From the NCBI GenBank assembly GCA_016181765.1, contig JACOYR010000001.1, forward strand, positions 157,062-221,061: 64,000 bases of DNA, given 5' to 3'. Origin of the DNA: Parcubacteria group bacterium (lineage in GTDB: Bacteria > Patescibacteriota > Patescibacteriia > UBA2169). How positions within the stretch are numbered: position 1 is the stretch's first letter; each line of letters begins with the position of its first letter. The notes under the pieces are model-generated. The model worked only from the letters and a program-made list of their open reading frames with translations. It did not search any database and was not told the DNA's origin. Below, piece after piece: positions 1,491 through 18,418 of this stretch. The translations under genes and the position numbers were made by a program.

Positions 1491-3281
1491 TTAATCTCTG
1501 ATGTTATAGACCTTGTAGAAATAAGACGCTTTGTCTTTGAGAAGCTCTTTCGGACTCCCCTGTTCAATAATCTTACCGTTATCAAGAACAATGAGTTTGT
1601 CGGAATTGCGCAGAGTGGAAAGACGGTGCGCAATGGCTAGAACTGTAATTTTACCTTTGAGATTTTCAATGACTTTCTGTATCTTTGCCTCGGATTCGTT
1701 ATCTAGAGAACTTGTCGCCTCGTCTAAAACGAGTATTTTTGGACTCCTCGCCAAAACGCGGGCAATAATAATCCGCTGCCGCTGCCCCGCCGAGAGCATA
1801 ACACCTCGTTCGCCAATAACGGTTTCAAATCCATTAGGGAGCCCTTGGATAAAATCATACATATGAGCCATGCGAGTTGCCTGCTCAACGTCTCTTTGTG
1901 TAAGCGTGTTGCTGTAGAACCTAATATTGTTGGCAATGGTATCATTCATAAGAAATAAATCCTGAGACACATACCCTATATTCCTGCGCCATTCCCGCAA
2001 GCCAAACTCAGTAATGTTTCTCCCGTCCAGAGTAATGGAGCCATTCTCCGGATTAAATAACCGGAGCAGCAGATCAACCAGTGTGGTTTTTCCCGCCCCG
2101 GAAGGGCCAATCAACCCAACCATTTCCCCTTTTCCCACCGAAAAACTCACCGCATCTAAGACGTTTTGGCTATCACTGTACCGAAAGGAAACATTCGTAA
2201 ACTCCAATGCATGATTAAAGACAACACGCTCATTGCCGGAATCTATTTCTGACACGCTATGCGACCTGTCCCGGTATTCAAGTACGCTTTTGAGGTATGG
2301 AACGGATTCGTTCATAGAATGCAGCGCGCCCTGAAACTGTTGTATGTACTGGAACATTCTCTGAATCAGATAGATAATAGCCGCCAGAGCGGCGAAGTTG
2401 AAATAGGGGGTCTGATAAGAAACAAAAAAAACAACGCTGATAAAAATAAGGCTCATGGGCTGCATGATGATGCTTGAAACACTGCTTAACAAGAAGACGA
2501 TGATTCTTAGTTTCCTTAGATCGGCAAAGTAACCAGCTCCTTTCCGAACCACCTGTTGACCCACGGACATTGCCTTCACTGTTTTCATGCCGAGAAGGTT
2601 TTCACTGACAAAATGCTGGACTTCTTTATTCATGGCGGCTGTCTTGTGCGCCGCCATTCTGGTTCGATACATGAGCGGCTTCAAGAGCAGGATAAGCACT
2701 CCGCCCAGAGTAAGCGTAATAAGCGATACGGAGGGAGAAATATTTATGGCTATCACTGCATACATCATTAAGCCGGTAGTAACCATAATGAACGTGCTGA
2801 TAAGTTTCAGCATCTGCGCGCCGTGCGTTACATCGTTCATTAAAATAACTTCCAAGTGCCCCAACTTCTGTTTTAAAAGATGCTCCCAGTTGGAAGCGAA
2901 TGTTGCGCCATAGAGCTCGTTTCTGGTCCGTTCTTCATAATCGGTTTGAATCTTAATCTGGACATAATTGAAAAATGCGAGCACCACAGCTTTCAAAACA
3001 AACATGCCGGAGATGAAAATCAGTATATACGCCAGATTAAAATCAATATGCGCATAGTAAAACACTTGCCTAATCGCCCTGGAAATAATGTCGCTTCCTT
3101 GATCTCCGCCGGCAATGAAAGAAAAAAGAGGGATAATGGCGTTTATACCAACACCTTCCAAAAGCCCGCTTAAAAATCCCAGCCCAGTCAACAGGATAAT
3201 CTGAAGTTTGTACCGTCCAAAAGCGCGGCGCGACAGCCGGATAATGTCATTGATTCTGTTGTCTCGAGGAAAGATACTCAT
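1491..3281 (-). CDS. ABC transporter, fused permease/ATP-binding protein (MsbA/exporter type)
   Basis: N-terminal six-helix transmembrane domain. Walker A GPSGAGKTTL, ABC signature LSAGQRQRIIIARVL and Walker B ILVLDEATSSLD. Confidence 0.9.
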   Translation of the reverse strand: MSIFPRDNRINDIIRLSRRAFGRYKLQIILLTGLGFLSGLLEGVGINAIIPLFSFIAGGDQGSDIISRAIRQVFYYAHIDFNLAYILIFISGMFVLKAVVLAFFNYVQIKIQTDYEERTRNELYGATFASNWEHLLKQKLGHLEVILMNDVTHGAQMLKLISTFIMVTTGLMMYAVIAINISPSVSLITLTLGGVLILLLKPLMYRTRMAAHKTAAMNKEVQHFVSENLLGMKTVKAMSVGQQVVRKGAGYFADLRKLRIIVFLLSSVSSIIMQPMSLIFISVVFFVSYQTPYFNFAALAAIIYLIQRMFQYIQQFQGALHSMNESVPYLKSVLEYRDRSHSVSEIDSGNERVVFNHALEFTNVSFRYSDSQNVLDAVSFSVGKGEMVGLIGPSGAGKTTLVDLLLRLFNPENGSITLDGRNITEFGLREWRRNIGYVSQDLFLMNDTIANNIRFYSNTLTQRDVEQATRMAHMYDFIQGLPNGFETVIGERGVMLSAGQRQRIIIARVLARSPKILVLDEATSSLDNESEAKIQKVIENLKGKITVLAIAHRLSTLRNSDKLIVLDNGKIIEQGSPKELLKDKASYFYKVYNIRD

Positions 3282-3288
3282 AGGCTAT

Positions 3289-4893
3289 TTACTCCGACCA
3301 ATCTGTCGCATCACTAGTCACTTCAATAAACTGAAACGGTGTTTTGTGATTTGATACAGAGTCGGAAAAATAATTTCTATCTTTCAATATATCGAAATCA
3401 CCATCGAAATACGTATTAAAAATAATTCGAAACGTATTTACTGGCGTAATGGTTTCATAAAAATTCGTCTCTCCATTCCCTGGCATATAATATGCATTCA
3501 AGATGCGCATTCGCTCTCTATAAAATCGCCCAGTTGATCGATCCTCTCCAGCGGTAGACCACGGACCATGATCACCCTGGATAATAATAATCGGCTCGGT
3601 CTCTGATTTTGTAAGTAGTTGATCGACCAATGCCAAAACTTTTTTGTTTACAAAAGTGACTTGATTTATATAGCGCTGCTTCTCGTCTTCACTCCAGCCA
3701 AAATTTTCAGGCGCCAATTGTAGTGGCGTATCCAGCACAGGTTCTCCATTTGGTCCAAACAAAAATGGTGGATGCGGAGCCATAATATGTGCGTATAAGA
3801 ACTTTGGTCCTTCCACGTCTGTAAACTCAGGCATTTGCGCGAGCTGATTAAATTGATACAATATCTGCTCACGATAGTCACTAAATACATACGCGTGTAT
3901 TGGGGGATATAAAAGTCCAGCCCGCAACAAAGTTGTATTGATAATCAACATTGAAAGCTCATCAAATTTTCCTCCTTGAAAATTAGCGTCTGCATATGGG
4001 TTCAGCCGCCGCGGGCCCCAGATTGACCTGAAATTAACATACGAATACCCCCTGCTTTTCAAAAACTGCGAAGCTTTGTTGTTCTCGATAAGCGGGCCGG
4101 TTGCGTCAAAATTTCTGTCCTTGCCTGCAACAACATCGGTCAGATAATTGACATATTCCATGTTAAGCGAAGAAGAAAGAGAAACATGGGTAACTGCAAA
4201 ATTGCTGGTGCTTTTATCGGGGATATAGAAGCCCCTGTTCCTTAATGCCGATATAAAAGAACTGTTATCGTAGTTATAATAGTCGCGCAACGTTTTCTCG
4301 TTGCCGTAGGCATCAAGAATGATATAGTAAATATCCGGTTTTGATGCTGCTGCGCCGGAATCAGCTACTGATACGGAATTAACAACAGATGCGTGGGGTA
4401 CGAAAGTCTTTTCCTTGAATAAGCCCGGAATAACTGAAAATAAGGATATCGCTATGAGTGCTACCGCAACCACATTCAAAAATTCAGAAAGGAGGCGCAA
4501 TCGCTTACGAGTAACGATTACGGATATCGTCAAAGTGACAAATACAATACCATACGTAGGCAGTACATAGCGCGCCCTGCCCAATTCAACACCGCCAATG
4601 GAGAACTCGAGCAATGCTTCGTAGATGTACCCATACGAAAAAAAGAATATGAGTAGCAGCGAGGTGCCCACAGCCGCCTTATGCGGATTTTTCAGCAACA
4701 GGTATGCATTGATCAGTACAATTGCCGTAATGCCAAGCGTCATGAGGATGGGAATAATAACATTTGAAAAGTCAAGTTCTGCGGGATTGTTGGTCCAGAA
4801 AAACAAAAATGGAAATATTGCGAGCAGAAACGGATGCGCGATGGAAAGTGAGCGTTTAAGTGAAAAACGTGAGAAAAACATATTGTTATGCAT
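3289..4893 (-). CDS. Membrane-anchored protein of the sulfatase/alkaline-phosphatase superfamily (LtaS/phosphoglycerol- or phosphoethanolamine-transferase-like)
   Basis: About five N-terminal TM helices followed by an extracytoplasmic domain with YYIILDAYG and IIIQGDHGPW motifs typical of the LtaS/MdoB/EptA sulfatase fold. Confidence 0.6.
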   Translation of the reverse strand: MHNNMFFSRFSLKRSLSIAHPFLLAIFPFLFFWTNNPAELDFSNVIIPILMTLGITAIVLINAYLLLKNPHKAAVGTSLLLIFFFSYGYIYEALLEFSIGGVELGRARYVLPTYGIVFVTLTISVIVTRKRLRLLSEFLNVVAVALIAISLFSVIPGLFKEKTFVPHASVVNSVSVADSGAAASKPDIYYIILDAYGNEKTLRDYYNYDNSSFISALRNRGFYIPDKSTSNFAVTHVSLSSSLNMEYVNYLTDVVAGKDRNFDATGPLIENNKASQFLKSRGYSYVNFRSIWGPRRLNPYADANFQGGKFDELSMLIINTTLLRAGLLYPPIHAYVFSDYREQILYQFNQLAQMPEFTDVEGPKFLYAHIMAPHPPFLFGPNGEPVLDTPLQLAPENFGWSEDEKQRYINQVTFVNKKVLALVDQLLTKSETEPIIIIQGDHGPWSTAGEDRSTGRFYRERMRILNAYYMPGNGETNFYETITPVNTFRIIFNTYFDGDFDILKDRNYFSDSVSNHKTPFQFIEVTSDATDWSE

Positions 4894-6289
4894 TGCGCGT
4901 TACATGATTATTTTTCATGAGATATAATATTCGTTCCGAGCCGGCAATCGGCGCTCGTTCCATGATTGAAAAATATGCGCTGAATTCGCGTTCAAAGGAT
5001 TCTTTCGTGTAGTCCGGGAAAATATCCCGCCTGGTTGCCAAAAGCTTTTGCACTTGCGAATCGCTTTTTGGAACAAACTCAATAATAAGGTGGCGGGCAA
5101 TGCTGCTGAAAAAGGAAGCAATGCGGGTCAATGGCACATTATTGGATATAACCAAATGATGGATAAGCGCGAGCGCGAACGTGCAATCAGCCGGACCGCG
5201 CATAATCAAAGAATCGCGCTCTTTGTTTTCCCAGCCGAGATCAGGACTCGGGTTAAGCACGTCCATTAAAAGCGGTAATAGGCGCGCATCGTTATCGCGC
5301 CGCATCCGGAGGTAATTTTTTTCCACTGATGCCGGATCATAATCAAACGAGACGGTTGCAATGCCGCGAGTGCTCGCAATCCTACTAAAGGTTCCATCAT
5401 TCGCGCCCACGTCCCAAACACTTCGTGCTCCGCTTTTTTCCAAAAATGCGGCCGTAAGCTTTTTCTTGTGTTCAAAAGATTCATTTGAGTAATTGGTAAA
5501 CGTATAATACTCAGCCCACTCGGTACCGCGCGGGCGCCAGCGCAAACGCCGCACGACGGATTCCAAATTATCCAACAAACCCAGCAGTGACGTTTTGCGC
5601 ATCTGGCGCTGGGCAGCAGTAGAGGTTTTGCCTGAAAAATGCGCCTGGCTTTTGGCGTGCAAATGGATATGCGAGAGCAGACCGAACAAAAAATACGTAC
5701 GGAACGGCAATAGTGCGCTTGCAAGATCCAGAGGCACTCCATCCATATGTATCCTAAGCCACTGGCTAAGCCGTATGTCTGTATAGGCCATAAGTGCGAG
5801 TGGGGCTAGAAAATGCTGGCAGAACTGGCGGTACGCAATCCAAGGGCTGCCTGCGGCATACTTTTCAAACGAAAGCGTATCAATAAGAATCGGTTTTCCA
5901 TCTAAAAATTGCATGTTGTACGCACTCGCATCTTTGAGAACCATGCCGTGCTCCAGAGCTTTCTTTTGAATGGCGAGCGTAAGCAGCGCCGCGTCTTTGA
6001 GCTGGCTGAAGCTCCACTCAAAAGGGTATGAGATAAAAGGAACTCTCCTCGGATGAATAACTTTATACCGTTCTTCGTGCCGGGGCGACTCCTCCGCGGG
6101 CAATTCCTTGTGCTCAATGAGCTGCCTGCTTGCAACGAGCTCACGATAAAGACCGGACGACATGAGCGCGTCATAGTGCTCCTGGTAGGATTTGTTCACC
6201 TGCCGGAAGAGCGCTCCGCTCTGTGAATCCGTATATATAAACCCACTTGGGTCGCGGAATGAGCTGGGATGTGCGGTAACAACATGCAT
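4886..6289 (-). CDS. Two-domain protein: N-terminal kinase-like (APH/protein-kinase-like fold) domain fused to a C-terminal class I SAM-dependent methyltransferase
   Basis: The N-terminal half has a catalytic-loop-like LKDASAYNMQF (D-x4-N) and IDTLSFE (DFG-like). The C-terminal half has the methyltransferase motif VWDVGANDGTFS and a Rossmann-fold continuation. Confidence 0.5.
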   Translation of the reverse strand: MHVVTAHPSSFRDPSGFIYTDSQSGALFRQVNKSYQEHYDALMSSGLYRELVASRQLIEHKELPAEESPRHEERYKVIHPRRVPFISYPFEWSFSQLKDAALLTLAIQKKALEHGMVLKDASAYNMQFLDGKPILIDTLSFEKYAAGSPWIAYRQFCQHFLAPLALMAYTDIRLSQWLRIHMDGVPLDLASALLPFRTYFLFGLLSHIHLHAKSQAHFSGKTSTAAQRQMRKTSLLGLLDNLESVVRRLRWRPRGTEWAEYYTFTNYSNESFEHKKKLTAAFLEKSGARSVWDVGANDGTFSRIASTRGIATVSFDYDPASVEKNYLRMRRDNDARLLPLLMDVLNPSPDLGWENKERDSLIMRGPADCTFALALIHHLVISNNVPLTRIASFFSSIARHLIIEFVPKSDSQVQKLLATRRDIFPDYTKESFEREFSAYFSIMERAPIAGSERILYLMKNNHVTRNA

Positions 6290-6290
6290 A

Positions 6291-6524
6291 CTAGCGCTCT
6301 TTGTCTTCTCTGGTTACTTTATTCTTGCTGCCGCCGATAAAAAAAGCTACTACCCTGTGCCAGAATATCTTGACCATGAAAAGTCCTCCGGCAACAAACG
6401 CAACCGCAAGCTGAACAAGGTAGCTTCCCGTGCCTGCGTCCAGGTACGCCTGGGCCGCGACAGGAAAAGAAAGGGCGTACGTAACGACTCCAAGAATGAG
6501 ATAAAAACGGTTGCGATGGAACAT
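6291..6524 (-). CDS. Small membrane protein (2 TM helices), hypothetical
   Basis: 77-aa ORF packed tightly between flanking operon genes. Two hydrophobic helices. Confidence 0.3.
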   Translation of the reverse strand: MFHRNRFYLILGVVTYALSFPVAAQAYLDAGTGSYLVQLAVAFVAGGLFMVKIFWHRVVAFFIGGSKNKVTREDKER

Positions 6525-6545
6525 AGGTGTGTATGCTAATGATTA

Positions 6546-8057
6546 CTATTTTATGAAAAATGGGCGGCCGCCATGCGGATAATACCGAATGGACGGGTAC
6601 ACTTCTCTTTCTGTAAAAAATTCATACACTGCCTTGCGCGCACCGGTCCAAGTTTCGTAGTCGTCAAGGATAACCATGCCCCCCGGAACCACTAAATCGT
6701 AGAGTTCGTCTAGGCAATACTTGGTTGATTCATAAATATCCGCATCAACAAACAGCAGCGCAATGTCCCCAATCTTCCGTTTTGCTTCTGGAACCGTATC
6801 CTGAAACCACCCCTTCTCGATGGAGACAATGTCGTCAACCCCAAGCGAATGCGTAATTTCCTGCGCCTTTTTATACTCTCCTTTGAACACGCCGGTTGTG
6901 CTTCGCTTGCCAAGATGCTCATCAGAAAATGGCACGCCTTTCTGAATTGCCTTATCCTTATCTGCTGTGCTGAATTCAGGCAGCCCTTCAAACGAATCAA
7001 ACTGCCAGACACGCCTCGTTTTTCCATGCTGTTTAACACGCCACGCCATTAATGCGCCCATACCGCCATTCCAGCATCCCATTTCTACAATGGAACCCGG
7101 TATGCCCTTTTTTTCTATATGATCAACCGCGTCGCATACTTGCCCCAGCACCCGATACCCGGCCAAAGTGTACGGAAATACCTTCTTGATAATTGGATAC
7201 AATAGTATCTTTTTGGGATCATTCCAAAAGAGCCGTCTGCATTTTCTTAATATATGTTTATTAATGTTTGATTCTCTCGGATTGATGCTTGAGCCCTTTG
7301 GCACAAAGTAATTATTGTCTTTAAAGTTACGCTCAATGAATCCCGCGGCGCGGGACAACTCTTCTTTGGTGTCAATCTCTATCCATCGCACCGGCCCGAG
7401 GTCAACCATCGTGGCCGGGTTATTGCCGCCCGATACATACTCCAAAATACCACGCTCAACAGACGCCTTCTGGTTGTTATCTTTCTTCAGAACATCATCC
7501 ACCTTCTCAAAAAATGCCGCAACCTGCCCCTCCGGACAATACCACATACTGTTAAAATAATAATCGTGCGTATCAAGCCCCTTAGACATGTTAATAACCG
7601 TATTGCGTTCATCCACTCGCACCATCATGTCCAGCTGCATTTCGTCCGATTCATGGCTCGTGCCGAATACTTTTATGCGGTCGTCAAGATGTTCTTTAAC
7701 AGTTCCGGCAATGCTTTTATCGTAAATATAATCACCATTGTACGTAATACATCCGCCGACTATTTCATCGCGCGCCTTCGCGAGGCTTGCAAGCGGTTCT
7801 GTTGTTGCGTATTCCGCATTCTCAACCAGCACAACATCCCTATCAATTGAAGCTACGGCCTCTTTCAGCTTGTCAAACTGGAACCCACCGACCACCACGA
7901 TTTTCTCGGGATTCAAAGCGCGCGCAAACGCGATTGAGTACTCAATAATAGGCCTACCACACACCATGGTGAGTGCTTTGGGCTGGTCTTTGGTCAGATC
8001 ACCCAGTCGCGTACCCATGCCAGCGGCAAGAATAACAGCGGTAAACTTATTCTCCAT
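6546..8057 (-). CDS. Fusion protein: N-terminal sugar/alcohol-phosphate nucleotidyltransferase (LicC/GlmU-NTP-transferase type) + C-terminal TylF/MycF-family (macrocin-type) O-methyltransferase
   Basis: N-terminus AVILAAGMGTRLGDLTKDQPKAL (NTP-transferase G-x-G-T-R motif). C-terminus MGCWNGGMG, QFDSFEGLPEF, VDADIYESTKYCLDELYDLVVPGGMVILDDY (TylF-like SAM binding and metal-dependent O-MT motifs). Confidence 0.7.
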   Translation of the reverse strand: MENKFTAVILAAGMGTRLGDLTKDQPKALTMVCGRPIIEYSIAFARALNPEKIVVVGGFQFDKLKEAVASIDRDVVLVENAEYATTEPLASLAKARDEIVGGCITYNGDYIYDKSIAGTVKEHLDDRIKVFGTSHESDEMQLDMMVRVDERNTVINMSKGLDTHDYYFNSMWYCPEGQVAAFFEKVDDVLKKDNNQKASVERGILEYVSGGNNPATMVDLGPVRWIEIDTKEELSRAAGFIERNFKDNNYFVPKGSSINPRESNINKHILRKCRRLFWNDPKKILLYPIIKKVFPYTLAGYRVLGQVCDAVDHIEKKGIPGSIVEMGCWNGGMGALMAWRVKQHGKTRRVWQFDSFEGLPEFSTADKDKAIQKGVPFSDEHLGKRSTTGVFKGEYKKAQEITHSLGVDDIVSIEKGWFQDTVPEAKRKIGDIALLFVDADIYESTKYCLDELYDLVVPGGMVILDDYETWTGARKAVYEFFTEREVYPSIRYYPHGGRPFFIK

Positions 8058-9888
8058 AGCTATTCTCTACTGCTTTCTTAATTAATTCTACGGGACATGG
8101 AATTCCATACTCGCCTTTTATTTTCCAAGCTTTGCCGATAGTATCGGGCAGAACGAACCGTACTTCGTTGGCTACTGTTTTTTTATTATACTTAAGCGCA
8201 TCAAGTATTGTTTGCGCATTAATGTACTCCGGAATTCTGCATGGCAACTGATACGCGCGGAAAATATCCTTATGCGCATCCACAGTATCTTCCCCGGCTT
8301 CCATTAAGGTTGCGAGTTCCGCCGAAACGCGCATGCCGATTGCAATTGATTGCCCGTGCGAGAGATCAAAACGGGAGAGAAACTCAATTGCGTGCCCCGC
8401 CTCATGGCCATACTGCAGAATCATAGCACGTTTGTGCTCGAACATGTCTTCGTGCATCAATTCAATTTTAAGTTGGATCGTCCGTTCAATGACTTCTTTT
8501 CGGAATGCAACATCAGCAACGTTGTCCGCGTTGTTAAGAAGATACTCATAAAAATCACGGTCCTGGCATATGGCATGCTTAATTGCTTCCGATATCCCGT
8601 CGCGAACCAACGAATCGGGGATGGATAGCGCCGGATCTATAACCACAAGGAGCGGCTGATAGTAGTTACCCACGAGATTTTTTCCTTTTTGCCCGTTAAT
8701 CCCTTGTTTTAAACTAATGGATACATCGAGCATATTCATAATCGTAGTCGGAAGATGTATGAGCCCGATTCCGCGGTACAAAGTGGCGGCCAGCAAGCCC
8801 GAAACATTCGCCACAACGCCGCCGCCTAGAGCGAAAATGATCGACTGCTCATCTATCCCGAGCGCGATAATTCTCTCTGCAAGATCATTGTATATTGACA
8901 TATTTTTACTCTGTTCCCCAGCCGGAATTACAAACTTGGCAACACGGTACCCCGCGTTCTGTAATTGCAAGAGCACGCTATCCCCAAAAAGAGCATCTAC
9001 ATTTTCGTCGGTTATAATAATGTGGTGCGATCCAGCGCGTTGGGGACCTATAATCCGAACCTTATCTAACTGTTTTAAAATTCCGGGTTCTATAATAATG
9101 CCGGTTTCTTGCGTCTTGGTATGTGTAAACGAAGTTGTAGGAACAATATCGTTAAGTGTCGCCAACTCGTGAGCGGGCCCTACATGCGCATGCGCGCGCC
9201 GCATAAACATTTCGGCGCGAAGCAAGGTGTCGGCAGCGTTTATATCGAACCACTGCATGTCCGGCAAAAATGAAATTTTTACCGGCGCCGCTTGATGCAG
9301 ATTCATAATCACTTCGGATGATTCTTTATGTGGATCCATGGCTCGAGCAATTTCCAAAAAATCAGTAATCCCTTTTTTCGTAAAATAATGAATTCCGGCA
9401 TGCAGGGCATCGTATGAAGCAATGTCTCTGCCCATGTTCAGCAGTTTTTTAAACCGTGTCTTGACAAAAACCGGAGCTCCGGAAAACTCGTTCTCTTTTT
9501 TGTGTTTAGCAACAAGCACTTCAACATCAGATTTTTTTGACAATGCGCGATAGGGATTATTTTCAAACACAAGGTCGCAGGAAGTAACAACGCATTCTGA
9601 TTCGACAAATTCCGCGGCACGGGAAAAAGAATGCAAAATACCGGCATCATCATTCGGCTCTTCGGCATATCGAATGTTTACATCCGTACCACTAAATTCA
9701 TTCACAACCGTTCGTACGAGAGCAGCATACGAGCCAACAACAATCACAATATCACGTATCCCGGCCTCCTGTAAAAGCTCAATCTGCCGAACAATAAGCG
9801 GCTTGCCGTACACCCGCAAAAGTGGCTTTGGCGTATCGAGCACATTAATTTTTTGGCCGCGGCCGGCAGCCAAAATAATTCCGATCAT
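8047..9888 (-). CDS. Fusion protein: N-terminal nucleotidyltransferase + C-terminal dehydroquinate-synthase-like (DHQS/sugar-phosphate-cyclase superfamily) domain
   Basis: N-terminus MIGIILAAGRGQKINVLDTPKPLL (NTP-transferase). C-terminus GGGVVANVSGLLAATLYRGIGLIHLPTT...KQGINGQKGKNLVGNYYQPLLVVIDP closely follows the DHQS/DOIS/EEVS nucleotide and metal-binding motifs (GGGV..D..G, PTT, KN-LIG-FYQP). Confidence 0.7.
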   Translation of the reverse strand: MIGIILAAGRGQKINVLDTPKPLLRVYGKPLIVRQIELLQEAGIRDIVIVVGSYAALVRTVVNEFSGTDVNIRYAEEPNDDAGILHSFSRAAEFVESECVVTSCDLVFENNPYRALSKKSDVEVLVAKHKKENEFSGAPVFVKTRFKKLLNMGRDIASYDALHAGIHYFTKKGITDFLEIARAMDPHKESSEVIMNLHQAAPVKISFLPDMQWFDINAADTLLRAEMFMRRAHAHVGPAHELATLNDIVPTTSFTHTKTQETGIIIEPGILKQLDKVRIIGPQRAGSHHIIITDENVDALFGDSVLLQLQNAGYRVAKFVIPAGEQSKNMSIYNDLAERIIALGIDEQSIIFALGGGVVANVSGLLAATLYRGIGLIHLPTTIMNMLDVSISLKQGINGQKGKNLVGNYYQPLLVVIDPALSIPDSLVRDGISEAIKHAICQDRDFYEYLLNNADNVADVAFRKEVIERTIQLKIELMHEDMFEHKRAMILQYGHEAGHAIEFLSRFDLSHGQSIAIGMRVSAELATLMEAGEDTVDAHKDIFRAYQLPCRIPEYINAQTILDALKYNKKTVANEVRFVLPDTIGKAWKIKGEYGIPCPVELIKKAVENSYGE

Positions 9889-10640
9889 ATACTCTTATTC
9901 ATGCGATTAATAAGCGCTACCTTCCTGCCTGACTGCAGCACTAGTATTCCCAAAAAGCCAATTGCATACATCCAGACAAAGATATCAATCCGGCCGAGAA
10001 GGGTAAAAACAAGCAGTGGTAGAACCATGCCAACCGAACTGAATATATTCCGGTTGACAATCCAATATGCCCAGCGGCTGAAAGACATTTTATTCGGGAC
10101 GGACTGCGCTGACGTGGCCCATGATTCAGATGCTTGTAAGGACATCAATCCATCCATTCTCACCTGTAAAAATCGGGTCAACAGCTTTGCCAATGTTCCA
10201 ACAAATCCGACAGCGAAGATGATTATATCCTGCGTTGCAATATACACGCCAATAGCAAGCGGCGCGAGCAGGAAAGCGTATTGCACGTCATGGCTGAACG
10301 GCTCCACAAACGCACTCCCCGCAAAGCCGGTATTTTTGCGCCAGCGAGCCACCTCCCCATCACAGGCATCTAGAATAATGGAACCATACACCAAACCAAC
10401 GCCGATCAATTGTTCCCGCAAACCGGAAAAAACAAACATCGAGATGCCCGCAAGATACACCAGAACGCCGATTACAGTAATCATGTTCGGCGTAATGGGG
10501 GTCGGGATAAGCAGCCGGGTGACGTAAATGGAAAAAAAACGGATTGTTCTTGCAACAAAGGTTTCGCGCGCCCCTTCTGGAGCTGTTTTTTGCAGCCGCT
10601 CGCGCAAATCGCGTATGTTAATTTTAGGCAATGTATTCAT
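9885..10640 (-). CDS. CDP-alcohol phosphotransferase (CDP-alcohol phosphatidyltransferase family) integral membrane enzyme
   Basis: Family signature D-x2-D-G-x2-A-R-x7,8-G-x3-G-x3-D is present as DACDGEVARWRKNTGFAGSAFVEPFSHD. Multiple TM helices. Confidence 0.75.
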   Translation of the reverse strand: MNTLPKINIRDLRERLQKTAPEGARETFVARTIRFFSIYVTRLLIPTPITPNMITVIGVLVYLAGISMFVFSGLREQLIGVGLVYGSIILDACDGEVARWRKNTGFAGSAFVEPFSHDVQYAFLLAPLAIGVYIATQDIIIFAVGFVGTLAKLLTRFLQVRMDGLMSLQASESWATSAQSVPNKMSFSRWAYWIVNRNIFSSVGMVLPLLVFTLLGRIDIFVWMYAIGFLGILVLQSGRKVALINRMNKSI

Positions 10641-11556
10641 AAAAATCTTGTTTTGAGACAGTAAAATTTTTGTAGCTGGAATAAAGATTATTCATTAAAA
10701 ATCTAAAATATCGCATTGTATTTTTCTTTAGAGATGCCATATAAAAGACATCAAATAAATGGCTGGCATACGCAAACATAATTGTTTTATATAATGCTTC
10801 ATATTCAAGGGCCGTAAGTTTTCGTACGCTTTTATACCCCCTATAAATATCTCTTGCGTATGTAAGATTCATCTTTTTATCGTACAGACCAAACCACATC
10901 ATCGTTTTTGCCAAATCAAGGACTAGCGGGCCAATATACGAATTATCAAAATCAATAATACCGTTCAGCCTTCCTTTGTAAAACAATACATTTTCCGGCT
11001 TTATATCAACATGAATTCCGCCGTTTGGCAGGCTTAAACTTAATCTGTATCTGATAATATCATCTTTGATTTCCTGAAATCTTCCCTTTAAAGGAATTCT
11101 GCTTTTAGCAACTGTCCGGGAGAATAAATTTATTTTGTTGCTCGTAAAGTTATAGTATTCATTTCTTTTACCCGACCATTTAAAATCCTTGGTCCTGCTG
11201 TGGATTTCGGCTAAGGTTTTACCTACATCTTTTCTTTGATTTAAAGTAATACTCTTTAAACTCTCTCCTGGAATATATTTATAAATAATTGCCGGGTACA
11301 AACCAACCTTAATAATCTCTTTGCCGCGTACAGGAACAATCTCCGGTACGGGCAACCCCGTAAGGCGCCCCAGTAGGGAAGTTTCAAAAGCAATCTCTTT
11401 TTCCTTTTTGTATCGGTATATTCTTAGTACATATTCCCCCTGTCCAGTTTTGACGTAATATGATTCATTAACTTGGCCGGACTTAAAACGCCTGATTTTT
11501 TTAACGTCTCCCAAATCCCAGCGCTTGCTTAAATTTTTAATTGAAGAGCTCATCAT
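10624..11556 (-). CDS. Aminoglycoside-phosphotransferase/choline-kinase-family small-molecule kinase
   Basis: Brenner motif GGIHVDIKPENVLF (H-x-D-x4-N) and IDFDNSY (DFG-like). About 310 aa, typical of APH/ChoK/homoserine-kinase-II enzymes. Confidence 0.65.
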   Translation of the reverse strand: MMSSSIKNLSKRWDLGDVKKIRRFKSGQVNESYYVKTGQGEYVLRIYRYKKEKEIAFETSLLGRLTGLPVPEIVPVRGKEIIKVGLYPAIIYKYIPGESLKSITLNQRKDVGKTLAEIHSRTKDFKWSGKRNEYYNFTSNKINLFSRTVAKSRIPLKGRFQEIKDDIIRYRLSLSLPNGGIHVDIKPENVLFYKGRLNGIIDFDNSYIGPLVLDLAKTMMWFGLYDKKMNLTYARDIYRGYKSVRKLTALEYEALYKTIMFAYASHLFDVFYMASLKKNTMRYFRFLMNNLYSSYKNFTVSKQDFYEYIA

Positions 11557-11560
11557 GCAA

Positions 11561-12583
11561 TTAAAATCTAATAACGCTTTTCAGTACTTTCCTGGTTTTA
11601 CCGGCGGCAAGAGCGTCCTCGATTTTTTCAAGCGGATAGACGTGATTTTTATCAAGGTAATCCCAGGCGTTTAATCTTTTATTTTTAATAAAATGAATAA
11701 TAGCATCGTGCGCTGAACCCTCGTCATAGGTGCGGCCATCGTAATAATTGAAATCTCCTTGCACTTGGGCTATGTCTATTTTGTAATCCAGATACTCATC
11801 CAAGCCATATACCCCTATTCTCCCGGATTTTTTGAGTAAAGGGAGTACATGGTTCAAAGTTTTGCTTTTGCCAACAGCATCAATAATGATATCTGCTCCA
11901 GAGTTCAATTCCGATGCGATGGCGCGAACATAGTCCGTGTCTTGGTAAGAAATGTACAGCTTTGTGTTTGCCTTGCTAAATAACTCTTTCCTGCCAGGAC
12001 TGCCGACTACGACTGGAATTAAACCAAGATTGCGAGCATGGTCTGCAAAAGCAAACGCAGTTGCTCCAGAACCGATGATTAAAACGACTTGTCCGGCTTT
12101 GGGTTCAATTCTCTTTAGGAACGAAAAGGTTTCGCGCCAGGTAATAATCATAGTTGACTCAATCGGGTCAAAACCAGCCGGCAAAACGCGGTGAATTGTT
12201 GATGCATGCCACAGAGACGCGTCCAGGCCGTCGTCGCGCATAGCTTGCCAGTCGGTAGCAATGCTCTTTTCGGCAAAAGCGCCCCACTGCATTTCATATC
12301 CGCTATCGCGAGGCAAACGATTGATTATCCGCGTTATAACATCACCTTTTTTAAAATTTTTGACTTTTTTCCCCCGTTCTATCACCTTACCTATACCCTC
12401 ATGCCCTAAAATTACCGGGTACCTAACATTATGATAGGGATCATTATGAACGATATGGAAATCAGTGGCGCCGCACACCGAAGCCGCCAGTGTTTCGCAC
12501 AAAACATCATAATCTCCGACAACCGGATCTGGCACGTCCTTGACAACAACTTCGCCTGGGGATTGTACAACTACGGCTTTCAT
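11561..12583 (-). CDS. Zinc-dependent alcohol/polyol dehydrogenase (MDR superfamily)
   Basis: MKAVVV...GDYDVLCETLAASVCGATD.H, GHEGIGKV, GDVI and Rossmann motif GSGATAFAFA. The coupling to the next gene by a start/stop ATGA overlap indicates an operon. Confidence 0.8.
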   Translation of the reverse strand: MKAVVVQSPGEVVVKDVPDPVVGDYDVLCETLAASVCGATDFHIVHNDPYHNVRYPVILGHEGIGKVIERGKKVKNFKKGDVITRIINRLPRDSGYEMQWGAFAEKSIATDWQAMRDDGLDASLWHASTIHRVLPAGFDPIESTMIITWRETFSFLKRIEPKAGQVVLIIGSGATAFAFADHARNLGLIPVVVGSPGRKELFSKANTKLYISYQDTDYVRAIASELNSGADIIIDAVGKSKTLNHVLPLLKKSGRIGVYGLDEYLDYKIDIAQVQGDFNYYDGRTYDEGSAHDAIIHFIKNKRLNAWDYLDKNHVYPLEKIEDALAAGKTRKVLKSVIRF

Positions 12584-13728
12584 ATAAAATCCATTATCAT
12601 TCGCGCGCGGCTATCCCAGGTATACTGCTTGACTGATTCGCGCGCCGCGCGCGGCAAATGTTTAATCTGATCCGGGTTGCGCATAACTCGATTAACTGAA
12701 CGGGCGAGATCATCCGGACTATCCGGCTCGCATAACAGCGCATTTTTATTGTGTGCTAAATACGGGGTAAAACTGGCGATACTACTGGCTACAATAGGCA
12801 CTCCAGACGCCATGTACTCAAACAGCTTAATGGGTGTGGTGTACTTCTGCGAGCGCTCCTCGTGCGCGGTATTAGGGAGTAGGAGCACATCAGCTGATTT
12901 TATAAATCGTATCACCTCCTTATGCGGCGTGAATGAGCGGAGGTACGTATTTGAAATACTGCATTCTTTGACGTACTGCGCTACTTTCGCGTAATCCTCT
13001 TTGGTGCCCCCTATCAAGACCACGGCAGCGCGAATGTCCTTGGCCGCATCCACAATCGTGTACACCCCTTTCCAACTATAGAAATGGCCAACGTACAGCG
13101 CGACCGGCATTCCAGGTTTGATTCCAAACTCCCGGTTCCAGAGTGATGCGTCCCGACTCACCGCATCGAACTCCGCGATATCAACACCATTCGGAGCACA
13201 TACGTACGATGCTTCTGGAATATCCATTGCGCGGTACTCATCAACCAACCCCCTTGCAACCACTACTTTTTTAGGGATGCGCTTTAAAAAAAACTCGTAC
13301 AATTCCTTAAATCGACTTTTCGGCTGATGATCTTCATATACAATCTGCTTCCCGGCGAGCGCCAGGAGAAAACTTGCAGTAATGTCGCGAGAGTATACGG
13401 TTCCGCGCCAGAACAGGCCGCAGAAAAACGCAACAAGCGCAAACCATACTCGCTGAAGCGGAAAATAGAGCGATTCACTTACGTACTGCAAAAGGCGGAC
13501 AACATCCGGCACGCGCGCGATGCTCATCAATCCGTCCTGAATATTGTAAAAATCCGCGATATTTGTTTTTATGTGGTTCTTCCGGCTCGGAATCAATAAT
13601 CTGACCGTACACCCTGCCCGCACGAGGGCTTCGATGGTTTTCGCAATCTGCAGACCATGCGCCTTTTCCGTGGGCATCCGCGAATTAGTGATATAGAGCA
13701 GGCGCATACGACCCCTTACTGCGGCCAC
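12580..13728 (-). CDS. Glycosyltransferase family 4 (GT-B fold)
   Basis: C-terminal EX7E-like region FEYMASGVPIVASS. N-terminal RLLYITNS...AHGLQIAKTIEAL. Confidence 0.7.
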   Translation of the reverse strand: MAAVRGRMRLLYITNSRMPTEKAHGLQIAKTIEALVRAGCTVRLLIPSRKNHIKTNIADFYNIQDGLMSIARVPDVVRLLQYVSESLYFPLQRVWFALVAFFCGLFWRGTVYSRDITASFLLALAGKQIVYEDHQPKSRFKELYEFFLKRIPKKVVVARGLVDEYRAMDIPEASYVCAPNGVDIAEFDAVSRDASLWNREFGIKPGMPVALYVGHFYSWKGVYTIVDAAKDIRAAVVLIGGTKEDYAKVAQYVKECSISNTYLRSFTPHKEVIRFIKSADVLLLPNTAHEERSQKYTTPIKLFEYMASGVPIVASSIASFTPYLAHNKNALLCEPDSPDDLARSVNRVMRNPDQIKHLPRAARESVKQYTWDSRARMIMDFI

Positions 13729-13970
13729 TTGTTGATGACATCCACAGCCCGCTTTTTAATTTTCATATATATATCTTCGGACTTCCTTTCTAATTCAGGT
13801 GATATGAGGCGCAAAATTTCCTTGCCCATAATACGATACTGTCCGCCGACCTTGTTGGCACGTAAAATTCCCCGTTTTAGTAGGCGTTTTACCGTACTTT
13901 CGCTAATCTTAAGCAAATCCTGGGCCTCCTGGGTCGTATAAACCGCATTTTCTTTGATTTCTTGAACCAT
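13716..13970 (-). CDS. Small helix-turn-helix DNA-binding protein (excisionase/MerR-type HTH)
   Basis: YTTQEAQDLLKISESTVKRLLKRGILRANKVGGQYRI is a classic excisionase-family HTH. It is the first gene behind a promoter region that contains tandem direct repeats. Confidence 0.6.
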   Translation of the reverse strand: MVQEIKENAVYTTQEAQDLLKISESTVKRLLKRGILRANKVGGQYRIMGKEILRLISPELERKSEDIYMKIKKRAVDVINKWPQ

Positions 13971-13979
13971 ATTGTGGAT

Positions 13980-14045
13980 AACTATAGTGATATACCAATA
14001 CTACCAAAAGTGTCAAAAAGTGTCAAAAGGTGTCATTGTTAATAA
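13980..14045. promoter_or_regulatory. Tandem 10-bp direct repeats (AAAGTGTCAAAA / AGTGTCAAAA / GGTGTCATTG) in the intergenic region upstream of the HTH gene; candidate operator array/promoter
   Basis: Repeats read directly in the sequence at about 14010 to 14040. The AT-rich intergenic region lies between convergent/divergent operon boundaries. Confidence 0.35.
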
Positions 14046-14090
14046 AAAATATCAAACAAAAAACCAATTATACTTAGTGTCCAGACAGCC

Positions 14091-14750
14091 CTATTGCCGA
14101 CACTCTTTTTCGATATCCACAGCTATGTCTTCCGGAGTTAATTTTTCCGCAAAAGACCCCTCCATCTCAAGCATTACCCGGGGAAAATCTTTTGAAAGGC
14201 CCTTTCCTGTGGCATTTGGGGAATATTGGGTTACCATAATTCCCCTATATTTAAGCTCAAGCCCAAGCGCCTCGCACAACCCAACCAAAGCATGCTTTGC
14301 CGTAAGATATGGGCCCAGACGCGGCATGGAATGGTTCGTAATTGCCGAACCTAATACAAAAATTCGGCGCAATGGGTGCTTGTGGGCAAGCAAGGCCTGC
14401 GCGACATGCCACAATCCTTTTACCTGTGTCTGCCAGTGCGCCTCATAATCCTCCCAACTCTCTTGAGAAAACTTTTTAAACTCAATCGGAGCGGCAACCG
14501 AGTATACGACATTATTAACCGGATCGCAGTCCGACAATACTGAATCAACGGCATCTGGGTCGGTTACATCAAGCGTCATAACCGATCCAACAATGCCTTT
14601 TGGCGGGCGGTACTCCCCTACCCCTGAATGTGTAAGCACCAAACTATGGCCTGTCTTAAAAAGGCGCTCACTGATAACTTTCCCAAAGGAGCTGGACGCG
14701 CCTATGATGAGCGTGGTTTGTATACTATTATCCGCCATAATGTCTATCAC
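14091..14750 (-). CDS. Short-chain dehydrogenase/reductase (SDR)
   Basis: N-terminal TLIIGASSSFGKVISERL (glycine-rich NAD(P)-binding motif). About 219 aa. Confidence 0.7.
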   Translation of the reverse strand: MIDIMADNSIQTTLIIGASSSFGKVISERLFKTGHSLVLTHSGVGEYRPPKGIVGSVMTLDVTDPDAVDSVLSDCDPVNNVVYSVAAPIEFKKFSQESWEDYEAHWQTQVKGLWHVAQALLAHKHPLRRIFVLGSAITNHSMPRLGPYLTAKHALVGLCEALGLELKYRGIMVTQYSPNATGKGLSKDFPRVMLEMEGSFAEKLTPEDIAVDIEKECRQ

Positions 14751-15150
14751 CTACTTTTGCCTCTCCTAAAACTGCGATTTCGCCCTGCGCATTGGTAATG
14801 GTAGTTTTAATCCGCAGCAGGGACACGGATTCAAGTTTTTCGGTTATCTCCCCGGCGACCGTAACTACATCTCCGACCAACACCGGCTTCCGGAATTCGG
14901 CGGTTTGCGAAAGGTACATATTATCATTCCCCAAAAAATACATGCCCACGAGCCGGGAAAATAAAGAAGCAAGAAGCATACCATGCGCCACGCAATCATC
15001 AAATCCCTTTTCCTGTGCAAAAACGCGGTCAGCATGCAGAAGATTCTTGTCGCCGGTAAGCGACGCAAAATCCGTTACCATGCCCCGCGTTATAGTAATG
15101 TTAAATGATTCCCGGTCGCCGACGTTACTATTGCCCCAATTAGCACTCAT
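14728..15150 (-). CDS. MaoC-like (R)-specific dehydratase, hot-dog fold
   Basis: FASLTGDKNLLHADRVFAQEKGFDDCVAHGMLLASLFSRLVG matches the MaoC/PhaJ hydratase motif. The ORF in the track starts further upstream (15261); the likely true start is the internal Met (MSANWG...). Confidence 0.7.
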   Translation of the reverse strand: MSANWGNSNVGDRESFNITITRGMVTDFASLTGDKNLLHADRVFAQEKGFDDCVAHGMLLASLFSRLVGMYFLGNDNMYLSQTAEFRKPVLVGDVVTVAGEITEKLESVSLLRIKTTITNAQGEIAVLGEAKVGDRHYGG

Positions 15151-15379
15151 ACTCAACAGCGTATTTATCAAGCGCCGCTTTAATGTCTGCGACCTTTTTA
15201 ACGGAAACAACTTCGTCAATAGTAAACGTAACCCCATAAGATTTTTCAAGCTCTGCCACAATCATGAGTCCGTTAAACGAATCCCAGCTCGGCGTGTTAT
15301 CTACAGATGTTTCTTCTGTAATGTCCTCTGCGGAGATGCCGAGAATCTCCGACAAAATCAGATATAATTTTTTATTCAT
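15140..15379 (-). CDS. Acyl carrier protein (DltC/ACP-like)
   Basis: LSEILGISAEDITEETSVDNTPSWDSFNGLMIVAELEKSYGV. The phosphopantetheine-attachment Ser lies in the DSF/DSL context. About 80 aa from the internal Met. Confidence 0.8.
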   Translation of the reverse strand: MNKKLYLILSEILGISAEDITEETSVDNTPSWDSFNGLMIVAELEKSYGVTFTIDEVVSVKKVADIKAALDKYAVEYEC

Positions 15380-16872
15380 AAGGCGCAACCGATGTGCTAA
15401 TAAAATCCAGCGGCTCAAACGTAAAATCACTTAAATCGTGTTCCCAGATGTCTTCCTCTCCGGATGCGCCTGCTTGTGCTACAAACCCGAAATCTCGGTA
15501 AAAGTCACGGACCTGGCTATTTTTCCGGGTTGGCAGATATTTCCCAACCACCTTTTTTGCCGCAATCTCTTTAAGCTGGTTCAAGACCGTCCCAAAAAAC
15601 TGGCACTCTATCCTCTTTCCTAGAATTCTACACGAAAGCAGCAAAGTGTCTATCTCCCAGCACCTCTTCTTGGTACCGGCGCGTGGTAAGATTGAACTGG
15701 TTAGTTTTTTGGGTAAGCTGCGAAGCGCGGGCAACATGTTCGTCGAGGATCGGGTGGATGTTAATGCGCATCCGGAGCCCCCGCAAAAAACTTTCAAGGT
15801 CAATAGATTTCTCTTTAAGCTTTCTCCTTTTTTTTTCGTCGGCATACATATGCGCTTTTTTGCGGTCCTCGTCTGTAATGCTGAACCGTGTGAATCCTTT
15901 ATACGAACGCAGCGCAGACACGTACTCCCGCGGATCGCGCGGAAGATCAATCACCGCCATCTCGGGAAGCGCGGACGCAACCAGTTCCCGATTGCGCGGA
16001 TCATCGTCAATAAACACCATGCTCTCAAGGCCGATGTTCAGCTCCTGCGCCAGCTCCTGCATGTTCTGCGCCTTGTTGCTCCAGTTAATGCGGGCTGCCG
16101 CAAAATCGTCTTCCGTAAGCAGCATATGCCTATGCTTCGCAAACACCTCCGCAACGTCGGCTTCGTTATTCCTGCTGTTGATGGCCAATATAATGCCGCT
16201 CTCCTGTAATTGCTTAATGGCACGCTGGAATTCGTAAAAAGGCGATCCCGCGCCACTCGGCGAAAGCGCGATGCCGGAGAGCCCATCTTCTCCGATAACA
16301 CCTCCCCAGAGCGTATTATCCAAATCCAGCACCAGACACTTTTTTGTTTTCCCGGCAAGCGGCACCAGATATGCGACAAGCTCGTTTGCAAAAAGCTCAA
16401 ACGCATGCGGCGCGAGCCGCATATCGGCAAGCTCGCGGTACTTTGTGTTCCAGTAGGCGTCCTTACCGAGAGACGCAATCCAACGGTTGAAATCAAAAAC
16501 ATGCACCTGCGTATTGTTTTTAAACCGGCGCACAAGCTCCTCGTTTACCGCTGTATCTGCCGCAGATTCGTCAACTTTGGTGCATACAATTATTTTTGCC
16601 GAAGTTTTAAAGCACAGCTGGTCAATCAGGGATATTTGGCTCACGGCATCCTCAAAATCCACTACCAGATAAATAATATCCAGTTTAAACGCGTACAACT
16701 CCTCTCCTAAAATTTCCTGCTGCCACTGCCCATACTCCCCGAGGTACGCCTGGATTGGGATGCCATAACGCGCGGCCTGTTGGCGCAGCTTTTCTTCCAC
16801 CCCTTTAACGGTGAAATTAGAAAGCAACGCTGCATGGTATGTTGTTTTATGCATAGCGCGCCGCAACCGCAA
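15372..16872 (-). CDS. FkbH-like HAD-superfamily enzyme (glyceryl-ACP loading type), with an apparent frameshift near 15630
   Basis: Hallmark CLVLDLDNTLWGGVIGEDG (HAD DxD motif in FkbH context). The 414-aa ORF stops at 15628 and protein-like sequence continues in another frame (…LGKRIECQFFGTVLNQLKEIAAKKVVGKY…) down to 15372. Confidence 0.6.
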
Positions 16873-17182: not shown

Positions 17183-17218
17183 ATGCAGTTCTATTTAAAA
17201 TATAACACACTGCGCCAA

Positions 17219-18409: not shown

Positions 18410-18418
18410 ATATATATC

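Follow-up and report, generated by a model that had tools for sequence, protein, structure and literature searches.

Outside the shikimate pathway, cyclases related to 3-dehydroquinate synthase (DHQS) are to our knowledge so far confined to natural-product routes (aminoglycosides, acarbose/validamycin, mycosporines/gadusol) and the cryptic ebo operon. Enzymes of this family eliminate the phosphate of their substrate during ring closure. In a recent review, the types DHQS, aDHQS, DOIS, EEVS, EVS, DDGS and EboD/DEIS were distinguished, and no fusion to a nucleotidyltransferase (NTase) was mentioned (PMC12904256). In the acarbose route, a cyclase, a Zn-dependent alcohol dehydrogenase (Zn-ADH), kinases and an NTase lead to GDP-valienol (PMC9200736). 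Here, a stretch of 64,000 nucleotides from contig JACOYR010000001.1 of a Parcubacteria group bacterium was analysed (the 64-kb window, whose positions are used as coordinates throughout), in which a gene for an NTase-cyclase fusion (8047-9888) lies within a core cassette of five co-directional genes (6546-12583), all on the minus strand. The products are a Zn-ADH, an APH-type kinase, a divergent CDP-alcohol phosphotransferase (PT), the NTase-cyclase fusion and a second NTase fused to a TylF-type methyltransferase. With a probability that we put at about 50%, this cassette would make a nucleotide-activated carbocyclic polyol, namely a cyclitol of the deoxy-inositol type, and would attach it, through a phosphodiester, to a membrane-bound surface-glycopolymer intermediate.

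Cyclase and nucleotidyltransferase domains of the fusion

The presence of a DHQS-like cyclase in 8047-9888, as put forward in the first-pass annotation of this DNA, was confirmed by scores of about 99 bits for each of the two DHQS domains and by the retention of all metal and phosphate ligands. In a sequence search against the Protein Data Bank (PDB), bacterial DHQS (2.8e-42) and BtrC, a synthase of 2-deoxy-scyllo-inosose (DOIS; 4.2e-42), were about level, and ValA (EEVS, 99 bits) and DDGS (80 bits) were more distant from the cyclase domain. No structure of an iron-dependent alcohol dehydrogenase (Fe-ADH) or of a glycerol-1-phosphate dehydrogenase (G1PDH) was returned in this search at E < 1e-3.

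Residues were compared in an alignment of 120 homologues with the BtrC PDB segment (among them 51 fusions and 55 AroB-like sequences), and conservation was also read from a separate alignment of 32 homologues; the fingerprint was based on the PDB alignments, and EEVS and DDGS were set apart from the fusion cyclase by score alone. R372, D388, K394, N404, E434, K437, K474, H495, H499, H511 and K569 were invariant in the 51 fusions as well as in the 32-sequence alignment. These positions include the metal ligands (E434, H495 and H511) and a complete phosphate pocket (R372, K394, N404, H499 and K569), and the Gly-rich NAD motif (G355-G357) was likewise invariant. Both DHQS domains, the NAD motif and the metal and phosphate ligands, by which membership of the superfamily was judged, were all found in the fusion cyclase.

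On this comparison, it is hardly credible that the fusion is no more than a shikimate-pathway 3-dehydroquinate synthase (AroB) to which an NTase has been joined. The aroB equivalog model (TIGR01357) is the top NCBIfam match, and several sources label homologues as '3-dehydroquinate synthase', but the score of 257.1 bits falls under the model's cutoff of 305. At position 488, Ala (A488) or Gly was present in 47 of 51 fusions, whereas all 55 AroB-like sequences carry an Arg (R264 of A. nidulans), which we take to be the ligand of the carboxylate of 3-deoxy-d-arabinoheptulosonate 7-phosphate. Position 492 is Gln in 49 of 51 fusions and, again in 55 of 55 AroB-like sequences, Asn (Asn268, in the RxxLNxGH motif). 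The fusion motifs S-x-K-Q and x-Y-G-H agree with BtrC and differ from the GGKT and LNxGH of AroB; the matching BtrC positions are K141-Q142 and Y244, and BtrC G239 stands opposite A488. Shikimate genes were not found near the fusion, which is always accompanied by a reductase and a kinase.

Little more credit is due to a second alternative, in which the DHQS-like domain does not cyclise at all and uses its bound NAD+ on a polyol or a sugar phosphate for a dehydrogenation of the G1PDH kind, an epimerisation or a phospho-lyase step, so that a CDP-alditol or a CDP-sugar derivative would be formed. This would fit the Pfam match to Fe-ADH_2 (the G1PDH family), the replacement of DOIS Glu243 or AroB Asn by Gln492, and the established CDP-ribitol theme (TarJ/TarI), in which a dehydrogenase is likewise combined with an NTase. 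The Fe-ADH_2 match, however, is weak (28.9 bits, compared with about 99 bits each for the N- and C-terminal DHQ_synthase domains), G1PDH and Fe-ADH structures are missing from the PDB matches at the threshold given above, and the phosphate pocket and the aldol/elimination residues are invariant. In addition, a dedicated kinase is present throughout, for which removal of the phosphate from the substrate is the best explanation.

Plain AroB and G1P-dehydrogenase-like roles were rejected on scores and residues. A cyclase acting on an NDP-sugar from the fused NTase was also set aside, as the monophosphate pocket is conserved and the DOIS/DHQS mechanism presumably needs a free anomeric centre. The outcome that the first-pass annotation had named as fatal to its cyclase assignment, namely a better fit to Fe-ADH or G1PDH together with loss of the DHQS ligands, was checked and not observed. 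By homology and conserved residues, the C-terminal domain is a DHQS-family sugar-phosphate cyclase homologue and neither AroB nor Fe-ADH nor G1PDH; nor is it a canonical DOIS, and it is placed by the same comparison in a separate clade about equidistant from DHQS and DOIS.

The N-terminal NTase of the fusion is IPCT-like, with PDB matches to RmlA, LicC and IPCT (2xme), and its residues G9, K21, D105 and D215 were at least 90% conserved among 32 homologues. With the IPCT/DIPPS model NF041135 it scored 75 bits; the scores obtained with this model (75, 42 and 28 bits) are all far below the cutoff of 580. NTase-only orthologues of the second NTase (referred to as NT2, approximately 249 residues) were found in 17 loci of class A, which is defined below. 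The TylF-type domain to which the second NTase is fused in the window is lineage-specific and would O-methylate the cyclitol unit.

Conserved partners, natural fusions and the proposed route

Full-length NTase-cyclase fusions form about 54 clusters in the protein database. The arrangement is not peculiar to the window: relatives recur in 343 species-level genomes (scan with one genome per species), many of them outside any glycan locus. Hosts are members of the candidate phyla radiation (CPR; Falkow-, Magasanik-, Taylor- and Saccharibacteria), uncultured Gammaproteobacteria, one metagenome-assembled genome of Cytophagia, and Myxococcota. The largest fusion-bearing group is Myxococcota/Bradymonadales, which includes the cultured Lujinxingia vulgaris (orthologue of the fusion on NZ_VOSL01000039.1) with a trio of fusion, short-chain dehydrogenase/reductase (SDR) and PfkB kinase. 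A literature search returned no paper on an NTase-cyclase fusion or on a CDP-cyclitol derived from a DHQS-like cyclase, which does not prove that none exists.

Two classes of neighbourhood were distinguished. In class A (CPR, Gammaproteobacteria and Cytophagia; about 20 loci), the fusion is accompanied by the variant PT, an APH kinase, NT2 and a reductase (Zn-ADH or SDR), and the loci are always glycan loci with many methyltransferases, glycosyltransferases of families 2 and 4 (GT2 and GT4), Wzx or ABC exporters and GT-C enzymes; TagF-like Glyphos_transf enzymes occur in 11 class-A-related loci. Class B (about 50 Myxococcota loci) consists of a tight operon of fusion, SDR and PfkB kinase. In 52 of the 57 loci whose downstream flank extends to 2.5 kb or more, genes for both a reductase (Zn-ADH or SDR) and a kinase (APH or PfkB) were located within 4.5 kb of the fusion. 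Zn-ADH is displaced by the non-orthologous SDR and APH by PfkB (the latter in Myxococcota), and these swaps argue that the functions are required and not the particular families. Orthologues of the window's Zn-ADH adjoin the fusion in 9 class-A loci, with an SDR instead in others.

The same partners are joined by natural domain fusions. The NTase-cyclase protein is fused to an APH kinase (L018, 929 residues) or, as a triple fusion, to an SDR (P0033, 862 residues), and the PT is fused to an APH kinase (P0253, equivalent to L006, and P0245), to an NTase (P0254 and P0258), to a TagF-like enzyme (P0262, locus L090, with the gene order GT4, TagF-PT fusion, Zn-ADH, NTase-cyclase fusion, APH) or to a HAD phosphatase (P0264, P0266, P0273 and P0278). 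The NTase parts of P0254 and P0258 share 32-37% identity with the NT2 type and 22-24% with the cyclase-fused NTase. By gene content and fusions, a 'cyclitol supply' module (cyclase/NTase, reductase and kinase) and a 'phospho-alcohol installing' module (NT2, PT and TagF-like enzyme) can be recognised, each of which stands alone in some genomes and which are combined in class A, including the window. Conserved neighbourhoods, non-orthologous displacement and Rosetta-stone fusions together lend strong support to the succession of cyclase, reductase, kinase, NTase and phosphotransferase sketched in the first-pass annotation, and they indicate that the pathway is modular and more widespread than was held there.

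From homology, conserved residues, gene linkage and fusions we infer the chemical steps, what the substrate and product are and how the two NTases share the work as follows. The DHQS-like domain would cyclise a sugar phosphate to a keto-cyclitol and inorganic phosphate, as its conserved catalytic set suggests, the best guess for the substrate being a hexose 6-phosphate such as glucose 6-phosphate. The ketone would then be reduced to a cyclitol by the Zn-ADH (by the SDR in other genomes), and the product would be re-phosphorylated by the APH-type kinase (PfkB in Myxococcota). A dedicated kinase would be needed because the cyclases of this family eliminate the substrate phosphate; PfkB-type myo-inositol kinases are known, as are APH enzymes that phosphorylate aminocyclitol rings. 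An NTase would convert the cyclitol phosphate to an NDP-cyclitol, probably the CDP form, from which the divergent PT would move the phospho-cyclitol, on the cytoplasmic side of the membrane, to a hydroxyl group on a lipid-linked acceptor; a TagF-like enzyme would also be involved in related loci. Finally, the product would be exported by the ABC transporter.

For the two auxiliary enzymes, the assignments follow from family and context. The proposed cyclitol kinase (10624-11556) matched a homoserine-kinase-II-like model at 122 bits, below the cutoff, and 2ppq in the PDB, and its motifs H182-x-D184-x-K-x-x-N189 and D202-F-D204 were invariant in 8 orthologues. The Zn-ADH (11561-12583), proposed as the keto-cyclitol reductase, matched threonine dehydrogenase and scyllo-inosose 3-dehydrogenase IolM in NCBIfam with its N-terminal part.

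The closest PDB structures to the PT are AF2299 (1.9e-9) and IPCT-DIPPS (4mnd, 3e-5), and in NCBIfam it matched synthases of archaetidylinositol-P and PIP. Of the family signature, the first half is retained (D91-x2-D94-G95-x2-A98-R99). The first-pass annotation had made its proposal depend on the complete signature D-G-x2-A-R...G-x3-D-x3-D in 9885-10640, and the Gx3Dx3D half is absent. In its place, E-P-x-S-H-D-x-Q-Y is invariant across 9-19 PT orthologues. An exhaustive profile search yielded 2176 representatives at E ≤ 1e-10, of which 39 reached E ≤ 1e-30; among the nearest 150, EPx[ST]HD was present in 31 and the canonical second half in only 7, and among the other PT relatives listed, G-x3-D-x3-H-[DN] was frequent. 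To judge from these motifs, the missing half weakens membership of the canonical family more than a CDP-alcohol-phosphotransferase-like function. The PT appears to be a divergent yet conserved branch of the family, for which the activity of a CDP-alcohol phosphotransferase is the one we infer.

Across this branch (2176 representatives at E ≤ 1e-10, of which P0253-P0402 were sampled), G-x3-[DE]-x3-H-[DN] replaces G-x3-D-x3-D, and its members occur in fusions with APH kinases, NTases, HAD phosphatases, TagF-like domains and a GINT1_N domain. A characterised member of the motif-divergent branch was sought, and none was found.

The nature of the acceptor was weighed on the same evidence. In Bradymonadales/Lujinxingiaceae (L024, L025, L033 and L079; about 7.3-9.6 kb in locus coordinates), the fusion operon lies back-to-back with genes for MIPS and a canonical PIP-synthase-like PT, an arrangement which hints that the cyclase product is linked to inositol phospholipid metabolism. 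The phospho-cyclitol might accordingly be placed on diacylglycerol or another lipid alcohol to give a phosphatidylinositol-like head group in a Kennedy-type reaction that needs no CDP-diacylglycerol, and this lipid would be either the end product or a donor from which a sulfatase-fold enzyme moves the head group to an external glycan, in the manner of LtaS, EptA and GacH. Beyond the Bradymonadales operons, this is favoured by the CDP-alcohol phosphotransferase family consisting mainly of lipid head-group enzymes, by the NCBIfam matches of the PT, and by the sulfatase-fold protein and the lipid-flippase-type ABC exporter that follow the cassette in the window and in Falkowbacteria. We nevertheless consider it unlikely: the sulfatase-fold gene stems from an independent module and is absent in most class-A loci, the fusion of the PT to a TagF-like, teichoic-acid-type enzyme in P0262 points to a glycopolymer, and AF2299 and DIPPS, the best structural relatives of the PT, are without lipid acceptors.

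Still less probable is a soluble phosphodiester solute resembling di-myo-inositol phosphate (a di-cyclitol phosphate or a cyclitol-phospho-alcohol) that is no surface substituent. The NTase and the PT are indeed most similar to IPCT and DIPPS, the PT-HAD phosphatase fusions would fit a transfer onto a phospho-alcohol with subsequent dephosphorylation, and the Myxococcota trio occurs alone, with glycan genes not nearby. In the window and at least 15 related loci, however, the cassette lies among genes for glycosyltransferases, for flippases or ABC exporters and for TagF-like enzymes, and is transcribed together with them, and even a PT-HAD relative is flanked by a TagF-like gene and a Wzx-type flippase.

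Installation of the phospho-cyclitol on a surface glycopolymer is weighed here against five observations that do not favour it. Gln492 aligns with BtrC Glu243, the residue proposed for phosphate elimination in DOIS, and the Glu by which a DOIS would be recognised is not found. The second half of the PT signature reads x8-G108-x4-E113-P-x-S-H117-D118 instead of G-x3-D-x3-D, and the chemistry of the PT may therefore differ. A P0264-type relative (L089) lies in a cyclase-less module with the order Wzx, TagF-like, PT-HAD fusion and NT2, so that PT and NT2 may handle another alcohol phosphate. The PT is fused to NT2 and not to the cyclase-linked NTase, and there is one kinase only, which would leave one NTase without a role. 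In about 50 Myxococcota loci, transferase and glycan genes are missing next to the class-B trio, and the end use may therefore vary between lineages.

A broader reading is offered tentatively, with doubt prevailing. The fusions would represent a new, widespread cyclase clade that supplies a CDP-activated carbocycle, a deoxy-inositol or a kindred compound, for cell envelopes, either as a teichoic-like cyclitol-phosphate polymer or oligomer (PT-primed and TagF-extended) or as an inositol-mimicking lipid head group in CPR and some Gammaproteobacteria, and a free NDP-cyclitol metabolite in predatory Myxococcota/Bradymonadales.

Separately, unfused cyclase homologues (about 40% identity) were found together with an SDR in GT4-rich polysaccharide loci of the cultured Burkholderiaceae Paraburkholderia atlantica CNPSo 3155 (L082, 9848-11092) and Trinickia symbiotica (L083). 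Cyclase-derived units may also be part of proteobacterial exopolysaccharides or O-antigens.

The glycan locus and an adjoining envelope module

Features of the cassette and its surroundings are listed in Table 1. Between about 1.5 and 36 kb, all long open reading frames (ORFs) are on the minus strand and form a single large glycan locus, with genes for GT2, GT4, a DegT aminotransferase, epimerases, an Asn-synthase-like protein and a UDP-GlcNAc 2-epimerase. The cassette is translationally coupled within this 35-kb glycan operon, which carries glycosyltransferases and the ABC exporter; start/stop overlaps were confirmed at 8047/8057, 9885/9888, 10624/10640 and 12580/12583. The first-pass annotation had described a block of six co-directional, mostly overlapping genes at 4886-11556. 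Co-direction and overlaps hold, as do five of its six domain descriptions (Pfam and NCBIfam), but this range contains only five long ORFs, and the sixth gene, that of the Zn-ADH, lies beyond its end. The kinase-like label given to 4886-6289 found no support in the searches, and in the interval 6289-6546 a short membrane ORF had been overlooked.

Table 1 Features of the cassette and its neighbours (positions in the window; aa, amino acids)
Position	Strand	Feature	Length	Basis or remark
1-1484	minus	Capsule_synth gene, KpsC/KpsS-like	513 aa	weak match; cut by window edge
1491-3281	minus	ABC exporter, fused ABC_membrane and ABC_tran	596 aa	Pfam
3289-4893	minus	multi-pass membrane protein with sulfatase/alkaline-phosphatase fold; module gene 3	534 aa	Pfam Sulfatase 26.5 bits (cutoff 25), aa 206-448
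4886-6289	minus	N-terminal domain of unknown family and class-I S-adenosylmethionine-dependent methyltransferase; module gene 2	467 aa	
6291-6524	minus	membrane ORF; module gene 1	77 aa	sequence read; called as gene on identical contig
6546-8057	minus	second NTase (aa 1-245) and TylF-type O-methyltransferase (aa 294-487)		NTP_transferase; TylF 131.7 bits
8047-9888	minus	NTase-cyclase fusion	613 aa	NTP_transferase; DHQ_synthase N (99 bits); DHQS_C (98.7 bits)
8050-9111	minus	DHQS-like sugar-phosphate cyclase domain of the fusion	~aa 260-613	Pfam PF01761 and PF24621
9154-9888	minus	N-terminal NTase of the fusion	~aa 1-245	Pfam NTP_transferase and NTP_transf_3
9885-10640	minus	divergent CDP-alcohol phosphotransferase-family membrane protein (PT)	251 aa	PF01066 25.2 bits (cutoff 22), marginal
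10624-11556	minus	APH/choline-kinase-fold small-molecule kinase	310 aa	Pfam APH 103.6 bits
11561-12583	minus	Zn-dependent medium-chain dehydrogenase	340 aa	Pfam ADH_N and ADH_zinc_N
12580-13728	minus	GT4 glycosyltransferase		Pfam Glycos_transf_1; directly upstream of cassette

The GT4 gene next to the cassette has orthologues in 10 related loci, where they lie a median of 4 kb upstream on the same strand. Orthologues of the ABC exporter, which probably exports or flips the product of the locus, were found in five related loci (47-69% identity). The Capsule_synth gene, which comes after the ABC exporter and has orthologues in loci L001 and L011, may fill the TagF-like role in the window. The GC content of the glycan locus (1-36000) is 0.41-0.48, compared with 0.51-0.59 in the remainder of the window (36000-64000), which is consistent with horizontal acquisition or with surface-glycan hypervariability; the minimum of 0.407 was measured at 10-12 kb, over the kinase and Zn-ADH genes.

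Downstream, the cassette is adjoined in the window and in Falkowbacteria by a trio of genes (3289-6524) encoding a small membrane protein, a methyltransferase of about 460 residues and a sulfatase-fold protein. The same trio recurs without cyclitol genes in Dehalococcoidia and other genomes (L086, L087 and L088), so that 4886-6289, counted in the first-pass annotation as a pathway gene, is no longer assigned to the pathway. The sulfatase-fold gene always follows the 460-residue methyltransferase in unrelated contexts, where the neighbours of the trio are STT3/AglB, GT-C enzymes, or an ABC transporter with a Stealth protein. The 250 N-terminal residues of the 4886-6289 product matched no listed family (hhalign probability against the APH family 0.08%), and more than 8000 homologues with about 60% identity are spread across bacteria and archaea; its methyltransferase domain is closest to the phosphate O-methyltransferases WbdD, MePCE and BCDIN3D. 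The 3289-4893 product is LtaS/EptA-like in architecture, from which a corresponding role would be read, and a PDB sequence search with it gave no match. On the evidence of these contexts, the trio is an independent, very widespread and uncharacterised envelope module.

The region directly upstream of the cassette, at about 13970-19861 (minus strand; 1-5800 of L085), is a Dlt-like acylation module that includes an FkbH loader, comprising genes for an MBOAT protein, a 396-residue unknown protein, an AcpS-type phosphopantetheinyl transferase, an FkbH-domain protein (TIGR01686, 315.7 bits), a carrier protein, a MaoC dehydratase and an SDR. Its content suggests that a glycerate-derived acyl group borne on the carrier protein is passed to an extracytoplasmic polymer. 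At 15662|15663, the window is shorter by 110 nt than a contig from SRR12113424 (L085, 4117-4226) to which it is 100% identical elsewhere; the loss breaks the FkbH-like gene (about 15372-16854, minus strand) into overlapping frames (ORFs 15628-16872 and 15372-15950). An assembly artefact, strain variation or a pseudogene could account for this difference.

Relation to known systems

If the broader reading given above is correct, this would be the first use of a DHQS-like cyclase in primary, non-antibiotic metabolism outside the shikimate pathway, and the product would represent a new class of bacterial surface phospho-polyols. Should the proposed route hold, carbocycle biosynthesis would be extended to cell-envelope chemistry in CPR/Patescibacteria, uncultured Gammaproteobacteria and predatory Myxococcota, which are biochemically little known; the nucleotide-activated polyols CDP-glycerol, CDP-ribitol, CDP-inositol and GDP-valienol would gain a new member, and a role would be given to the large motif-divergent branch of CDP-alcohol phosphotransferases. 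The hypothesis is testable with the fusion-SDR-PfkB trio of the cultured Lujinxingia vulgaris, its soluble enzymes being amenable to in vitro work.

With DOIS and the wider cyclase superfamily, the fusion shares the two-domain fold family, the metal and phosphate/catalytic residues, the motifs S-x-K-Q and x-Y-G-H and the lack of the AroB carboxylate Arg. It differs from DOIS in having Gln at the position of Glu243 and in the attached NTase; moreover, aminoglycoside clusters with DOIS use aminotransferases, whereas the partners of the fusion are a reductase and a kinase.

The IPCT/DIPPS pathway, which proceeds via CDP-inositol, has in common with the cassette an IPCT-like NTase and a DIPPS/AF2299-like PT, and in some relatives the NTase is fused to the PT or a phosphatase is fused. 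Inositol is supplied there by MIPS, in place of which the cassette has a cyclase, a reductase and a kinase; a tblastn search with a MIPS query detected no MIPS in the window. The setting also differs, with a thermophile solute operon on the one side and a glycan locus with a variant PT motif on the other.

The NDP-cyclitol branch of acarbose and validamycin biosynthesis (AcbC/ValA, the Zn-ADHs AcbL/ValN, cyclitol kinases and AcbR/ValB; PMC9200736) follows the same toolkit logic. The cyclase there is of the EEVS type, unlike that of the fusion, and the kinases here belong to the APH and PfkB families. A pseudoglycosyltransferase is lacking here, and the CDP-alcohol PT or the TagF-like enzyme would imply a phosphodiester rather than a C-N or C-O pseudoglycosidic linkage. 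Acarbose and validamycin genes are located in secondary-metabolite clusters of actinomycetes, whereas the hosts of the cassette are CPR, Gammaproteobacteria and Myxococcota.

The CDP-alditol systems of teichoic acids (TarI/TarJ for CDP-ribitol and TagD/TagF for CDP-glycerol) likewise combine a reductase and an NTase to yield a CDP-polyol; an ABC exporter and, in 11 related loci, TagF-like enzymes are further common elements. The polyol of the cassette, by contrast, would be carbocyclic and would require a cyclase and a kinase, and a CDP-alcohol PT is involved; as a counterpart of TagF, the window contains only the weak Capsule_synth-like gene cut at position 1. Set beside these systems, the cassette is a plausible, uncharacterised NDP-cyclitol-phosphate pathway assembled from known enzyme families, and would be a variant of the CDP-polyol and NDP-cyclitol systems.

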